A DNA stretch of 24,194 nt from an uncultured Gammaproteobacteria bacterium. GTDB lineage: Bacteria; Patescibacteriota; Patescibacteriia; Magasanikbacterales; GWA2-37-8. The stretch is taken from assembly GCA_964359335.1 (NCBI GenBank), contig CAYHSR010000001.1, forward strand, positions 1 to 24,194. The letters are read 5' to 3'. This document shows positions 3,830-9,707 of the stretch, one piece after another. How positions within the stretch are numbered: the stretch's first letter is position 1; every line of letters starts with the position of its first letter. The notes under the pieces are model-generated. The model was not told where the DNA came from. It did not search any database and worked only from the letters and a program-made list of their open reading frames with translations. Made by a program: the position numbers and the translations under genes.

Positions 3830-3858
3830 TTGAATAAAAAATCAATTTATGCTAAACT
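3830..3858 (+). promoter_or_regulatory. Sigma70 promoter (extended -10) for secA
   Basis: TTGAAT (3830-3835), 17 nt, TGc plus TAAACT (3853-3858). Confidence 0.65.
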
Positions 3859-3890
3859 AAACAGGCCTAAAAATGGTCTGTTTTTATTTA
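3859..3890 (+). terminator. Intrinsic terminator-like hairpin between the GH gene and secA
   Basis: AAACAGGCC-TAAAAAT-GGTCTGTTT (one G-U pair) followed by a T-rich tail. Confidence 0.55.
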
Positions 3891-3895
3891 TCTTT

Positions 3896-6682
3896 ATGTC
3901 TTTTTTAACCAAACTTCTTGGTGATCCAAATAAAAAAATTATCGCCGGTATTCAACCGATAGTTGATAAAATAAACGCTCTTGAACCGGCAATGGCTGTT
4001 TTAAGTTTGGAACAATTAAAACAAAAAACTTTTGAATTTAAGGTAAGATTAAATCCGCCGACCGGCGGAGATGGCGAGACCTTAGATGATATTTTACCCG
4101 AGGCGTTTGCCGTGGCGCGGGAAGCGTCCAAACGTACGACTGGCATGCGCCATTATGATGTCCAATTAGTTGGCGGGGTGGTTTTGCATCGCGGTCAGAT
4201 CGCGGAAATGAAAACCGGTGAAGGAAAAACTTTAGTTGCAACTTTGTCAATATATTTAAATGCTTTAGCCTGCAAAGGCGTTCATTTAGTAACGGTCAAT
4301 GATTACTTAGCTAAACGTGACGCGATTTGGATGGGAAAGATTTATGACGCGTTGGGTTTGAGTGTCGGTGTGATACAGAATATGTTGGTGAGTTATCGGT
4401 ATGACGCGAAATTAAAAATGAAAAATGAAGAATTAAAAATAGATAATAAAGTTGAGGACGAGAAAGAGGCGGTGTTTAAAGTGGAAAATGAATATTTGGA
4501 ATCATGTTCGCGATCAGAGGCCTATAAATGCGATATTGTGTATGGCACCAATAACGAATTCGGGTTTGATTATTTACGCGACAACATGGCGCAAAATTGG
4601 GAAGACAAATCACAGCGGGAATTCAGTTTCGCAATCGTCGACGAGGTGGATTCTATTTTGATTGATGAAGCCCGAACGCCGTTAATCATATCAGCGCCAA
4701 CCGAAGATGCCAGTCAGATGTATTACAAATTTGCCGATTTAGTTAAGCGATTGAAAGAAAATGAAGATTATAATGTGGACGAAAAAATGCGCGCCGCTAC
4801 TTTAAGCGAAGCTGGTATAACCAAAATGGAACAATGGTTGAATATTGACAATATTTACGCCGAGGGAGGAATCAAGACCGTTCATCACGTTGAACAGGTC
4901 CTGCGCGCCCAAACATTATTTCAGAAGGACCGAGATTATATTATTGAAAACGATGAGGTCTTAATTGTTGATGAATTTACCGGCCGTAAGATGCCGGGTC
5001 GGCGTTATAGCGAGGGTTTGCATCAAGCAATTGAGGCCAAAGAGCGGGTGGTGATTCAACAAGAATCGCAAACCATGGCCACGATTACTTTTCAAAATTT
5101 TTTTCGGATGTATGACAAACTATCCGGTATGACTGGAACGGCCGTGACTGAAGCCGAGGAATTTGGCAAGATATATAATTTAGAAGTTGTCTCTATTCCC
5201 ACTCACAAACCAAACCAAAGAATCGATCAGCCGGATAAAATTTACAAAACCGAGGATCATAAATTTAAAGCGATTGCCAAATTAGTATGTGAACGGCAGA
5301 AAATTGGCCAGCCAATCTTAATCGGTACAGCGTCAGTGGAAAAAAACGAATTATTGTCAAAATATTTGGCCGACGAGGGTGTGGTTTTTGAGACCTTAAA
5401 CGCAAAAAACCACGAACGGGAGGGACAAACCATCGCTCAAGCGGGCCAATCAGGCAAGGTAACATTAGCGACCAATATGGCCGGACGCGGTGTGGATATT
5501 ATTTTGGGCGGTAATCCGATTGATATTGAAATGCAAAGCAAAGTTAAAGAATTGGGCGGGTTGTTGGTGATTGGCACAGAACGGCACGAAGCGCGTCGGA
5601 TTGACAATCAGTTGCGCGGACGCGCCGGACGCCAGGGCGATCAGGGTATGACGCAGTTTTATTTATCTACTCAAGACGATCTAATGCGGATTTTTGCCGG
5701 CGATCGTATTCGCTCGGTTATGAATACCTTGCGTGTGCCGGATGATCTACCGATTGAACAGAAATCAATTTCAAGAATTATTGAATCCGCGCAAAAAAAA
5801 GTGGAAGGGATTCATTTTGATACTCGTAAACATTTATTGGAATATGATGATGTGCTCAATCGCCATCGCGAGGTCGTGTACGGCAAGCGTGATGAAATAT
5901 TAAAAACTTTTTCCAAACAGAAAAAAGGCGAGGAAGTATCAATTAAACAAACTTTACGCGCCAAAATTTTACAAATGGTTGAGCAAGAAATAGAAAATTT
6001 AATTTCTTTTCATACTAATTCTGAAGAAAAGCGTGATTGGAACATTCAAGAAATTAATGAATCCATTCAGACCATTTTTCCTTTACAGCCAATCGAAAAA
6101 GATAAAATCATGGAATTTGCTAAAGTTGATGGAGTAGGGAAGTTAGGCGAAGTGGAAGCGCGCACGGCAATTATTGAATATGCGGTTGAATTGGCTAAAC
6201 AAAATTATGATAATTTGTTAGTCAAGCCAATGCCTGATTCGAATTTATTAATTGAGATTGAAAAACAGGTGCTGTTGCGCGGGATTGATAATTTATGGGT
6301 AGATCATTTGGTCGCCATTGATTATTTACGCACAGGTATCGGCCTGCGCGGTTATGGTCAGCGCGATCCGTTGGTTGAGTATAAAAAAGAAACCTATCGG
6401 ATGTTTCATGAATTGTTGGACGCGATAAACAAAGAAGTCGTGTATTTGATTTATAAAATTAATATTGGTATTCAATTAGCCCCTTCGGTAATGGCCAAAG
6501 GAAATTTACAGCTGTCCGGAGCGTCCAAAACATCCGGCAGTAACGGTCTTGCTCTTTTGTCGGTCGGTAATAAACAAAAAAATTCAGATGGTTCTAAAGT
6601 CGGACGCAACGATCCTTGCGTTTGCGGAGCGACCAATAGTGACGGCACGCCAAAAAAATATAAAAAGTGTTGCGGAAAATAA
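3896..6682 (+). CDS. secA: Preprotein translocase ATPase SecA (928 aa; start moved from track TTG 3830 to ATG 3896)
   Basis: MKTGEGKT Walker A, DEVDSILIDEARTPLIIS, QLRGRAGRQGD, and C-terminal GRNDPC zinc-binding motif. The upstream TTG is the promoter -35. Confidence 0.98.
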   Translation: MSFLTKLLGDPNKKIIAGIQPIVDKINALEPAMAVLSLEQLKQKTFEFKVRLNPPTGGDGETLDDILPEAFAVAREASKRTTGMRHYDVQLVGGVVLHRGQIAEMKTGEGKTLVATLSIYLNALACKGVHLVTVNDYLAKRDAIWMGKIYDALGLSVGVIQNMLVSYRYDAKLKMKNEELKIDNKVEDEKEAVFKVENEYLESCSRSEAYKCDIVYGTNNEFGFDYLRDNMAQNWEDKSQREFSFAIVDEVDSILIDEARTPLIISAPTEDASQMYYKFADLVKRLKENEDYNVDEKMRAATLSEAGITKMEQWLNIDNIYAEGGIKTVHHVEQVLRAQTLFQKDRDYIIENDEVLIVDEFTGRKMPGRRYSEGLHQAIEAKERVVIQQESQTMATITFQNFFRMYDKLSGMTGTAVTEAEEFGKIYNLEVVSIPTHKPNQRIDQPDKIYKTEDHKFKAIAKLVCERQKIGQPILIGTASVEKNELLSKYLADEGVVFETLNAKNHEREGQTIAQAGQSGKVTLATNMAGRGVDIILGGNPIDIEMQSKVKELGGLLVIGTERHEARRIDNQLRGRAGRQGDQGMTQFYLSTQDDLMRIFAGDRIRSVMNTLRVPDDLPIEQKSISRIIESAQKKVEGIHFDTRKHLLEYDDVLNRHREVVYGKRDEILKTFSKQKKGEEVSIKQTLRAKILQMVEQEIENLISFHTNSEEKRDWNIQEINESIQTIFPLQPIEKDKIMEFAKVDGVGKLGEVEARTAIIEYAVELAKQNYDNLLVKPMPDSNLLIEIEKQVLLRGIDNLWVDHLVAIDYLRTGIGLRGYGQRDPLVEYKKETYRMFHELLDAINKEVVYLIYKINIGIQLAPSVMAKGNLQLSGASKTSGSNGLALLSVGNKQKNSDGSKVGRNDPCVCGATNSDGTPKKYKKCCGK
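4054..4069. repeat. Short GC-rich palindrome in frame in secA
   Basis: TCCGCC-GACC-GGCGGA, encoding PPTGG. Confidence 0.7.
4408..4449 (+). repeat. Degenerate heptamer tandem array (6 x 7 nt) in frame in secA
   Basis: GAAATTA AAAATGA AAAATGA AGAATTA AAAATAG ATAATAA; encodes KLKMKNEELKIDNK. Confidence 0.65.
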
Positions 6683-6744: not shown

Positions 6745-8802
6745 ATGAATCCTATCCAAAAAAAGACCAAATCCCTGACTCGTTCAAAATTACGAACTCA
6801 TATTATCGCGATTATCGCGCTGATAGTTTTATGTTTAGTATTCGTCTTACCTGGCAAAATCAATCAAGGTATTGATTGGGTTAATGCTAAGGCCAATATT
6901 GGCGTGCCTAAATTACCGGCCGCCGATTTCAATTTAGGTTTGGATTTGCAGGGTGGCGCGCACTTAATTTATCAAGCTGATATAAGTACGATTAAAGACA
7001 GTGATCGGGTGGATTCAGTTGAAGGTGTGCGGGATGTAATTGAAAGAAGAGTCCGAGGTGGATTGGGAGTGGGCGAACCGGTTGTACAGACCACTAAGGT
7101 TGGTAAGGATTATCGAGTCATAGTGGAATTGCCAGGAATTAAAGATACAAACAAAGCAATTAAGATGATCGGCGAAACGCCGACTTTAGAATTTAAAGAA
7201 GAAAGTAAAGAACCTGCCCGCGCTTTGACTTCAGTCGAGACAAAAGAGATGAATGATTTTAATAATAAAGCCAAAGATAAAGCCCAGAAGGCCTTGGATG
7301 AAATTAAAAAGGGATCGGATTTTGCTTCGGTCGTAAAAAATTTCACTGAGGACGGTGAAACGATCAAAAACAACAGCGGTTCATTAGGTTATATTGATGA
7401 TTCAGTCTATCCCGAAATTTATAACTGGGCCAGTAAGGCCAAAGATGGCGAAATTAGCAAGGATTTAGTCAAATCTACTACCGGTTATAATGTTTTAAAA
7501 AGAGCGGCGATTAAAGACAGTGGCATAGAAGTTAAGGCCAGTCATATTTTAATCTGTTATGCTGGCGCGCAACGATGCGATGCCGCTATTTATAAAACCA
7601 AAGAAGAAGCCAAAAAGAAAATTGAGGAAATTAAAAAAGAAGTGACCGTGAAAAATTTTGTCACTTTAGCCAAAAAATATTCCACTGAACCGTCAGCCGC
7701 GCAAACCGGTGGAGAATTAGGTTGGTTTAGTAAAGGGCAAATGGTCGTTGAATTTGAGAATGCCGCTTTTTCTATAGCAACTGGCACAATTTCCAATGTG
7801 GTAGAAACCTCTTTTGGCTATCATATAATTTTAAAAGAAGATCAACGATCTAAAAAGGAGTATCAAGTGGCCAGGGTGTTTACGGCCACTAAATCAGCGA
7901 CAGATATTGTGCCGGCGTCGGAACAATGGAAATCCACCGGTTTGTCCGGCAAACAGTTAAAGCGGGCGGAAGTGACTCAAGACAACCAAACAGGACAGGT
8001 TCAGGTTAGTTTAAATTTTGATGCTGAGGGTACGAAATTATTTGCCGATATTACGACTAAAAACAAAGGTAAGTTAGTCGCGATATTTTTAGATGGCCAG
8101 TCAATTAGTATTCCTCGAGTTAATGAAGCAATTTTGAGCGGTCAAGCGGTGATTAGCGGCGGTTTTACGATTAGCGAGGCGCAATTATTGGCTAGACGGC
8201 TTAATTCCGGCGCTTTACCGGTGGCCATTAAATTAATTAGCCAACAAACAGTTGACGCGACATTAGGCGCCGATTCATTACAAAAAAGTTCTTATGCCGC
8301 GTTGATTGGTTTATTGTTGGTAATTTTATTCATGATTATTTATTATCGTTTGCCCGGTGTGATTTCGGCTTTGGCCTTAGGCATTTACGCTGTATTATCG
8401 TTAGCGATTTTCAAATTAGCCGGCGTTACCTTAACACTTTCGGGCATCGCTGGATTCATCCTGTCTTTGGGTATGGCTGTTGATGCCAATGTTTTGATTT
8501 TTGAACGGCTTAAAGAAGAATTACAAGCCAAACGCAATTTACGACCTGCCATTGAAGATGCGTTTGTGCGCGCTTGGCCGTCTATTCGCGATGGTAACAT
8601 TACCACTCTTTTGAGTTGTGTCTTCTTAATTTGGTTTGGCAGTGGTTTTGTGCAGGGTTTTGCTGTCACTTTGGCGATTGGTGTTTTGGCCAGTATGTTT
8701 ACCGCGATTATCATCAGTAAAGCCATTATCCGTTTAATTAGTTATTGGACCAAAGAAGAAGGGAATTGGACGTTTTTAGGATATAAGAAAAGAATTATAT
8801 GA
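6745..8802 (+). CDS. secD: Protein translocase subunit SecD with inserted parvulin-type PPIase domains (685 aa; start moved to ATG 6745)
   Basis: LGLDLQGG, DVIERRV, VIVELPG, LARRLNSGALP, GMAVDANVLIFER and SIRDGNITT SecD motifs. The insert contains VKASHIL, GGELGWF and FGYHII parvulin motifs. Confidence 0.97.
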   Translation: MNPIQKKTKSLTRSKLRTHIIAIIALIVLCLVFVLPGKINQGIDWVNAKANIGVPKLPAADFNLGLDLQGGAHLIYQADISTIKDSDRVDSVEGVRDVIERRVRGGLGVGEPVVQTTKVGKDYRVIVELPGIKDTNKAIKMIGETPTLEFKEESKEPARALTSVETKEMNDFNNKAKDKAQKALDEIKKGSDFASVVKNFTEDGETIKNNSGSLGYIDDSVYPEIYNWASKAKDGEISKDLVKSTTGYNVLKRAAIKDSGIEVKASHILICYAGAQRCDAAIYKTKEEAKKKIEEIKKEVTVKNFVTLAKKYSTEPSAAQTGGELGWFSKGQMVVEFENAAFSIATGTISNVVETSFGYHIILKEDQRSKKEYQVARVFTATKSATDIVPASEQWKSTGLSGKQLKRAEVTQDNQTGQVQVSLNFDAEGTKLFADITTKNKGKLVAIFLDGQSISIPRVNEAILSGQAVISGGFTISEAQLLARRLNSGALPVAIKLISQQTVDATLGADSLQKSSYAALIGLLLVILFMIIYYRLPGVISALALGIYAVLSLAIFKLAGVTLTLSGIAGFILSLGMAVDANVLIFERLKEELQAKRNLRPAIEDAFVRAWPSIRDGNITTLLSCVFLIWFGSGFVQGFAVTLAIGVLASMFTAIIISKAIIRLISYWTKEEGNWTFLGYKKRII

Positions 8803-9707
8803 AACAAATTGACTTCATAAAATATAATAAAATTTGGGTAGCCTGGACTATTCTTATAACTGTTGGCGGATTAATTTTGATTTTTACTCTTGGTTTAAAG
8901 CCAGGCATCGATTTTACCGGTGGGTCATTGTTGGAATTAAGCTTTAGTCAAAGTCGTCCGGATAATAATGCCATCAATCAAATTTTGGTAAAAAATAATT
9001 TAAAAGAAAACACAATTCAAAAAAGCGGTGATAATGATATTATCGTTCGCACTAATTTTTTGAGTGAAGTTCAGCACCAAAAGGTTTTGGGAGATTTTAA
9101 AAAAGAATTTACCAAAAATAACAACAAGATTACTGAAAGCCGTTTTGAAACCATTGGCGCGGCAGTGAGCCAGCAGTTAAGGAACCGAGCAATCTGGGCG
9201 ATTGTGTTTGTGGTTTTGTCTATTGTTATTTATGTCGCCTATGCTTTTCGCAAGGTATCTCGGCCGGTTGCCAGTTGGAAATATGGCGTGATATCAATAG
9301 TGGCCGTATTACATGATATTTTATTGGTTTTAGGCGTGTTCGCGATTTTGGGAAAATTTGGCGGTGTGGAAGTAAGTATCGCAATTGTTGTGGCATTGCT
9401 AACCATTTTAGGTTATTCTATCAATGACACTATTGTCGTTTTTGATCGCATTAGGGAAAATTTACTTAAAACTCGCTGGGATAATTTTGGCGAAGTAGTT
9501 AATAATGGCTTAAATCAGACTTTAATGCGTTCTTTAAATACTACTTTAACTACCTTATTGCCGCTATTTGCTTTATATTTTGCCGGCGGAGCGACTATTC
9601 ATTATTTCAGTTTGGCTTTGCTGATTGGTATTGCCAGCGGCGCTTATTCTTCTATTTTTATTGCCAGTCCGTTATTGGTTATAGTGGAGAAGTGGGGTAG
9701 TAGATAA
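8799..9707 (+). CDS. secF: Protein translocase subunit SecF
   Basis: GIDFTGGSLLE, HDILL, GYSINDTIVVFDRIRE, RSLNTTLTT and YSSIFIASPLL; ATGA overlap with the secD stop. Confidence 0.98.
   Translation: MKQIDFIKYNKIWVAWTILITVGGLILIFTLGLKPGIDFTGGSLLELSFSQSRPDNNAINQILVKNNLKENTIQKSGDNDIIVRTNFLSEVQHQKVLGDFKKEFTKNNNKITESRFETIGAAVSQQLRNRAIWAIVFVVLSIVIYVAYAFRKVSRPVASWKYGVISIVAVLHDILLVLGVFAILGKFGGVEVSIAIVVALLTILGYSINDTIVVFDRIRENLLKTRWDNFGEVVNNGLNQTLMRSLNTTLTTLLPLFALYFAGGATIHYFSLALLIGIASGAYSSIFIASPLLVIVEKWGSR

Follow-up and report, generated by a model that had tools for sequence, protein, structure and literature searches.

Two parvulin domains nested between the P1 base and P1 head of a SecD from the Magasanikbacterales

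The handover of chains leaving SecYEG to folding helpers has until now been seen through cross-links and through low-resolution or predicted models of PpiD, SurA and Mpn444 beside SecDF. A secD gene from an uncultured bacterium placed in the Magasanikbacterales (Patescibacteriota) raises the question of whether such a helper can be part of the SecD chain itself, and what it would do there. The gene lies at positions 6745-8802 on the + strand of a 24,194-nucleotide stretch of contig CAYHSR010000001.1 (assembly GCA_964359335.1), and the whole of this stretch is referred to below as the window. It encodes a protein of 685 amino acids (P0002). An initial annotation, made from the sequence alone, had proposed that two parvulin units are built into the P1 domain of this SecD. 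Pfam bore this out with two Rotamase matches between SecD_1st and SecDF_P1_head, and the SecD and parvulin motifs quoted in that annotation were all found in their places.

Domain layout and nested topology

The secD product scored 365.8 bits against TIGR01129, the NCBIfam equivalog-domain model for SecD (cut-off 244.4), and contained all three Pfam SecD modules in order (PF21760 at residues 93-153, PF22599 at 397-493 and PF02355 at 495-665). Its model matched the SecDF structure 5YHF with a Z score of 24.9 (Foldseek/VIA), the isolated P1 domain of Thermus SecDF (3AQO_A) matched model residues 71-503 at Z 18.7 (VIA), and a partner secF gene was present. The product is taken to be a working SecDF subunit, with a presumed role in export driven by the proton-motive force. 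The N-terminal part of the P1 base (SecD_1st, residues 93-153; 7021-7203) ends with the strand TLEFKE, and the model shows a strand at residues 148-153. The P1 head subdomain (residues 395-493; 7927-8223) matched PF22599 with an E value of 2.4e-28, and the C-terminal transmembrane domain (residues 495-665; 8227-8739) was recognised by PF02355 and by model helices at residues 509-668. These features, like the parts of the insert described below, are on the + strand.

Between TPTLEFKE (residues 145-152, nucleotides 7177-7200) and WKSTGLSGKQLKRAEV (residues 395-410, nucleotides 7927-7974) lies an insert of 242 residues. The initial annotation was right about the insert and slightly low in its count of about 235. 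The insertion site coincides with the Pfam border of SecD_1st and SecDF_P1_head; in a plain SecD from this phylum the linker found there is about 25 residues long. Rotamase (PF00639) matched the protein in two stretches, with a whole-protein E value of 9e-37. The better stretch covers residues 267-365 and profile positions 1-96 of 97, scoring 126.4 bits against a gathering score of 21.7. The weaker one precedes it (nucleotides 7237-7503) and reached 50 bits on its own, with an E value of 3.5e-13.

The folds of both domains were predicted with AlphaFold2. For the whole SecD (alignment of 40 sequences) the mean predicted local distance difference test score (pLDDT) was 84, with 87-95 in the insert, and the predicted template modelling score (pTM) was 0.51. 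For the P1 domain alone (53 sequences) the corresponding values were 91.7, 95-98 and 0.67. The second domain of the insert, which we call the inner parvulin (residues 258-368; 7516-7848), has the canonical order of parvulin elements. Its residues 258-366 superposed on residues 50-163 of the human Pin1 catalytic domain with a Z score of 17.7 and a root mean square deviation of 1.9 Å over 105 aligned residues, at 36% identity (VIA), so that the proposed parvulin is backed by a fold as well as by the Rotamase matches. The first domain, the outer parvulin, is degenerate. It has the same order of helices and strands as the inner domain and a pLDDT above 90, in addition to its Rotamase match.

The initial annotation had described a complete parvulin following a degenerate one. 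The two domains and the order of the motifs were upheld, whereas a simple tandem is ruled out: in the superposition on Pin1 the His-bearing strand 262-270 goes with the inner domain, and SecDs with a single parvulin place that strand after strand 4. Instead, models and alignments indicate nesting with strand exchange: the inner parvulin is inserted into the final hairpin of an outer one that is circularly permuted (residues 160-257 plus the strand 369-384). Since Pin1 covers residues 258-366 as one complete domain, the strand that bears H267 belongs to the inner domain, and the outer domain must therefore take its first strand from residues 369-384. The outer parvulin would then consist of a segment from helix 1 to strand 4 (residues 160-257; 7222-7515) and a displaced first strand (residues 369-384, EYQVARVFTATKS; 7849-7896). 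This last strand was assigned by strand register and by its alignment with ASHILIKTKS of the single-parvulin SecDs. Its pairing with the outer domain, and the position of the module relative to the head and base, were deduced from DSSP strings, from the range covered by Pin1 in VIA and from sequence alignments. In both AlphaFold2 models the strands 247-270 and 358-381 were unbroken, at 24 residues each. Their ends sum equally (247 + 381 = 270 + 358), which fits a ribbon of two antiparallel strands that spans both domains.

Comparison with single-parvulin SecDs of the same class is consistent with this arrangement. In two of them (L007 and L013) the sequence runs from helix 1 through GGDLGWF and FGYHIIKK to a loop, KASHILIKTKS and the P1 head, so that the His-bearing first parvulin strand comes last; Pfam covers only profile positions 9-96 of the parvulin in L007. 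Aligned with such proteins, the SecD of the window contains about 107 additional residues, as one block, within the final hairpin. The outer domain and the single form share the N-terminal helix and the C-terminal boundary, and the single SecD parvulins resemble the inner core (47-48% identity) more closely than the outer core (30-35%). A stand-alone foldase encoded elsewhere in the host genome (see below) is colinear with the outer domain from helix 1 to strand 4 and with the EVKASHILI of SecD that comes next. At the level of sequence, the pattern resembles what tandem duplication of a permuted unit would give. The fusion joins two well-known families in an unusual nested, permuted topology. 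The initial annotation had seen in it a candidate for an undescribed system; in agreement with this, no relevant paper came up in a literature search for a SecD-parvulin or SecDF-parvulin fusion, or for a circularly permuted parvulin, with poor coverage of subscription journals. Databases name such fused proteins just 'SecD'.

Conservation of the active site and distribution of the fusion

Conservation was assessed in an alignment of 79 two-domain SecDs, 78 of them from species-representative genomes; the two-domain relatives showed 42-70% overall identity. In the inner domain H267, G323, F337 and H360 were present in all 79 sequences, as was a threonine or serine at position 355. Position 315 was acidic in 78 (glutamate in 50, aspartate in 28), and this acid aligns with the Asp of the STD motif of PrsA. 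The conserved set in the SecD of the window includes H267, S313, E315, T355 and H360. The parvulin catalytic network, which we take to be Cys/Asp, His, His and Thr/Ser (Pin1 C113, H59, H157 and T152), is represented in the inner domain by E315, H267, H360 and T355, which occupy the same columns in the PrsA alignment. The earlier reading of the second domain as one with an intact catalytic set therefore stands up across the 79 SecDs. Judged by these residues, the inner parvulin would be of the PrsA/Par10 type, a non-phospho-specific prolyl isomerase with catalytic competence.

The outer domain lacks the catalytic pair of histidines, with N249 at the position of the strand-4 histidine and R377 at that of the strand-1 histidine. 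Residue 249 was asparagine in 29 of the 79 sequences, glutamate in 15 and histidine in only 4. Both histidines occurred together in only three sequences, and the two positions were most often N and R.

Two cysteines, Cys271 and Cys278 (7555-7578), lie in the loop between strand 1 and helix 1 of the inner parvulin. Both were present in 64 of the sequences and neither in the other 15; one alone was never seen. This all-or-none pattern fits a disulfide, which is likely to be formed. The host genome contains at least four DsbA-like genes (PF13462), and a search of it for VKOR (PF07884) gave no match above the cut-off.

The distribution of the fusion, which the initial annotation had left to be checked, was surveyed within Patescibacteria at two levels: in 71 genomes sampled from the window's class, with roughly one for each family, and in 401 genomes across the phylum. 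A parvulin lay within SecD in 68 of the 71 class genomes. Two parvulins were found in 23 (SecDs of 668-741 amino acids, one of them only probable) and one recognised parvulin in 45 (548-690 amino acids, three of them cut by contig ends). The remainder comprised one SecD with a degenerate outer domain only, one plain SecD and one genome (88% complete) that gave no SecD match. Covalent fusion in almost every sampled family of the class provides independent evolutionary evidence for a parvulin beside the P1 head of SecD. Across the phylum most SecDs were plain proteins of 430-560 amino acids that matched the head only. A few other families carry the insert, some of them in a single-chain SecDF of 1031-1089 amino acids.

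Some SecDs from these other families had features of their own. A single-chain SecDF with a parvulin insert (L009:465-3527, - strand) has 1021 amino acids. In a SecD of 705 amino acids that carries the insert (L012:198-2312, + strand) the first part is long and barely recognisable, and another of 788 amino acids, also with the insert (L011:411-2774, + strand), has a hydrophobic, transmembrane-like stretch in the region of the P1 head.

The double form was found in 80 species genomes, whose records are labelled Magasanikbacteria, Falkowbacteria, Uhrbacteria, Buchananbacteria or Parcubacteria group. This bears on the possibility that an assembly chimera or a mis-joined contig had placed a foldase gene within secD, which the initial annotation had named as a way in which its proposal could fail. 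The host genome is indeed a fragmented metagenome-assembled genome (855 kb, 169 contigs, 91% complete), and this is all that speaks for a chimera. The reading frame is uninterrupted, and the same junctions recur in the 80 independent species genomes, including a 1.08 Mb chromosome and a 1.24 Mb contig. The architecture is also shared by more than 100 protein clusters, drawn from several sources. A chimera is thus ruled out, with next to no probability left to it.

Within the window's own family, four genomes (G018, G071, G158 and G192) encode SecDs of 581-591 amino acids with only the degenerate outer domain. The G018 protein is 53% identical to the SecD of the window across the outer parvulin core. 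The outer-only SecDs at the loci of G018 (L008:656-2407, - strand) and G192 (L014:437-2176, + strand), with 580-584 amino acids, contain GLNIIK or GLNIVK and IARIFIKTK or IARVFIRTK, and the intact inner domain is absent. The occurrence of such proteins within this family suggests that the catalytic inner domain was lost secondarily. Together with the forms that have one active parvulin or a dead and an active one, these dead-only forms are ready-made controls for studies of structure and function.

Comparison with known systems and the role of the module

SecDF of Thermus thermophilus and Deinococcus radiodurans (3AQP, 3AQO, 5YHF, 5XAN and 5XAP) shares with the SecD of the window the SecD fold, the GG motif, the P1 base and head and the transmembrane domain of the resistance-nodulation-division type. 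The system described here differs in that SecD and SecF are separate chains, with secF directly downstream, and in that 242 extra residues containing two parvulins separate the P1 base from the head.

The best sequence matches of the inner parvulin were to PrsA of Bacillus subtilis and Staphylococcus aureus (4WO7, 2JZV and 1ZK6), with E values from 1e-17, for 4WO7, to 7e-17. STEP...GGELGWF aligned with STDSSA.KGGDLGWF of PrsA, and FGYHII with YGYHII, giving a common non-phospho-specific set of ASHIL, S-T-acid, GG-acid-LGWF and F/YGYHII. PrsA likewise acts outside the membrane of a cell that has no outer membrane. It is, however, a separate lipoprotein dimer with its parvulin within a SurA_N-like chaperone domain, whereas the SecD described here is part of the export chain and gave no Pfam match to SurA_N. 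The NCBIfam models gave scores far below those of true members: 77 bits against 361 for PrsA, 77.2 against 394 for SurA and 76.8 against 493 for the PpiD-type PRK10788. By analogy, then, the fusion would work like PrsA, SurA and PpiD without being a member of these families, both domains of its insert having the parvulin fold.

In SurA of E. coli (1M5Y) an inactive parvulin is followed directly by an active one. The NCBIfam SurA model spanned both domains of the insert (SecD residues 170-372 on profile positions 189-388), and phmmer aligned insert residues 15-218 with SurA residues 168-368. SurA differs in being soluble, in having an N-terminal chaperone domain, in carrying its parvulins as separate beads rather than nested, and in serving outer-membrane proteins. 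PpiD has a single inactive parvulin. The association seen for PpiD-YfgM of E. coli (8ZHT) is non-covalent, unlike the fused chain found here. PpiD touches the periplasmic domain of SecD (PMC9643414), and AlphaFold models place both SurA parvulins on the P1 head of SecDF (PMC9987972). Mpn444, a parvulin lipoprotein of Mycoplasma pneumoniae, cross-links to SecD; Mpn444 and Mpn436 are surface parvulins of the peptidyl-prolyl isomerase (PPIase) kind in a minimal cell, and have been proposed to fold chains leaving SecYEG (bioRxiv 10.1101/2024.09.05.611430). Both are separate trimeric lipoproteins outside the SecD chain.

By analogy with these systems, we consider it fairly likely that the insert is a co-translocational foldase, placed at the junction of the P1 base and the swinging P1 head. 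Unfolded chains captured by P1 as they leave SecYEG would meet the foldase at once, and the inner parvulin would catalyse prolyl isomerisation on them. The outer parvulin, in which both histidines are lost, would probably serve as a scaffold or as a surface for substrate binding. In E. coli, PpiD and SurA would achieve the same end by touching SecD non-covalently. Such an arrangement would suit a cell without an outer membrane, and the fusion bears on the folding of surface proteins in ultra-small cells of this kind. The data show the architecture, the folds, the conserved residues, the nested order and the spread across lineages; that the module has PPIase activity, acts on substrates during translocation or is coupled in any way to the movement of the head is what we infer. 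That the foldase rides on the mobile P1 head, as the initial annotation had it, is a conjecture; the insert sits right at the border of base and head. A link between the foldase and a neighbouring hydrolase with a Pro/Thr-rich linker, suggested in the initial annotation, is pure speculation.

Several points weigh against a co-translocational foldase. In vivo, cells can do without the PPIase activity of SurA and without the parvulin domain of PpiD; conserved catalytic residues therefore need not mean that catalysis has been selected. The four relatives with only a degenerate outer domain show that the catalytic domain is dispensable there. The host also encodes a stand-alone foldase of the PrsA/PpiD type, and the fusion is therefore not its sole foldase. 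The proposal itself is built on sequences and predicted models, and the relative placement of the domains is uncertain, as the pTM values of 0.51 (whole SecD) and 0.67 (P1 domain) indicate. A predicted complex between the P1 head (residues 395-495) and the module (residues 155-394) scored 0.00, which is evidence neither way.

The module could instead be a non-catalytic holdase, both parvulins enlarging the polypeptide-binding area of P1 while isomerisation is irrelevant. SurA and PpiD provide precedents, in that the first parvulin domain (P1) of SurA and the parvulin domain of PpiD have no PPIase activity and nevertheless take part in chaperoning. The outer domain, kept even though 76 of the 79 sequences lack its histidine pair, fits this explanation, as do the four genomes of the window's family that retain the dead domain alone. 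It accounts poorly for the inner domain, in which none of the 79 sequences departs from H267, H360, F337 or the T/S at 355 and only one lacks the acid at 315, because binding alone would not demand that the exact catalytic set be kept so strictly. We regard a pure holdase as unlikely, though it is the alternative that we take most seriously.

Two further explanations start from the position of the insert. In one, the rigid two-domain body on its two-stranded ribbon would serve the P1 hinge as a mechanical or regulatory element, tuning or limiting the swing of the head driven by the proton-motive force, or contacting the cell wall or partners rather than substrates. Insertion exactly at the boundary of SecD_1st and SecDF_P1_head, and the stiff connection implied by the long continuous strands 247-270 and 358-381, would be expected of such an element. 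It leaves a parvulin with a conserved active site unexplained, the single-parvulin forms have no such ribbon, and there is no positive evidence of any partner; we therefore find it very improbable. In the other, which we find improbable but somewhat less so, the proton-driven swing of the P1 head would be transmitted mechanically to the parvulin module, and SecDF would be an energy-coupled foldase. Each powered stroke would present, strain or release substrate at the prolyl-isomerase cleft, and the permuted attachment point, which corresponds to the strand 1-helix 1 loop beside the active site, would aim the cleft at the hinge. If true, this would amount to a powered chaperone cycle for the ATP-free extracytoplasmic space. 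The fused SecD offers a single-chain object for cryo-electron microscopy and biochemistry.

The stand-alone foldase, the sec locus and the source records

The initial annotation had suggested that the fusion could replace PrsA or PpiD in a streamlined cell. This does not hold for the genome of the window. Contig 82 of the host (L001:1300-2346, - strand) encodes a protein of 348 amino acids with an N-terminal hydrophobic membrane anchor, a SurA_N_3 match (residues 25-151) and a parvulin (residues 198-282), and the presence of this membrane-anchored foldase means that the SecD fusion does not replace PrsA/PpiD there. In it the His-bearing strand, EFRASHIIF, follows strand 4, which is the same circular permutation as in SecD. 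The gene adjoins one for an ABC-ATPase-like protein and one for a membrane protein. On the wider question of whether carriers of the fusion lack prsA, ppiD and surA, the outcome was divided. Among the class genomes with an intact parvulin-bearing SecD, an open reading frame of stand-alone size matching PF00639 was present in 33 of 66 and was not found in the other 33. Replacement may therefore have occurred in some lineages, although incomplete genomes or sequence divergence could also explain such absences. G018, whose SecD has only the outer domain, still encodes a stand-alone parvulin of 362 amino acids.

In the window, secD is part of a secA-secD-secF cluster on the + strand. The open reading frame of secA (3830-6682) lies directly upstream, and secF (8799-9707) follows secD, its ATG overlapping the secD stop codon (ATGA, 8799-8802), which suggests translational coupling. 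The frame of secD is unbroken and extends mechanically to a GTG at 6667; the start in line with all homologues is the ATG at 6745. Among 80 related loci, secF lay 3′ of secD in 74, and a match to the C-terminal part of SecA lay upstream of secD in 39.

In two SecDs of 735 and 743 amino acids (P0121 and P0102) the first helices of the C-terminal membrane domain are separated by an additional hydrophobic insertion of some 45 residues (alignment A1, columns ~637-684). Records of Patescibacteria-type SecDs are often titled 'uncultured Gammaproteobacteria bacterium', and also Hyphomicrobiales or Binatia (L015, L018, L020, L024 and many others). These titles look like placeholder or wrong labels on third-party assemblies.

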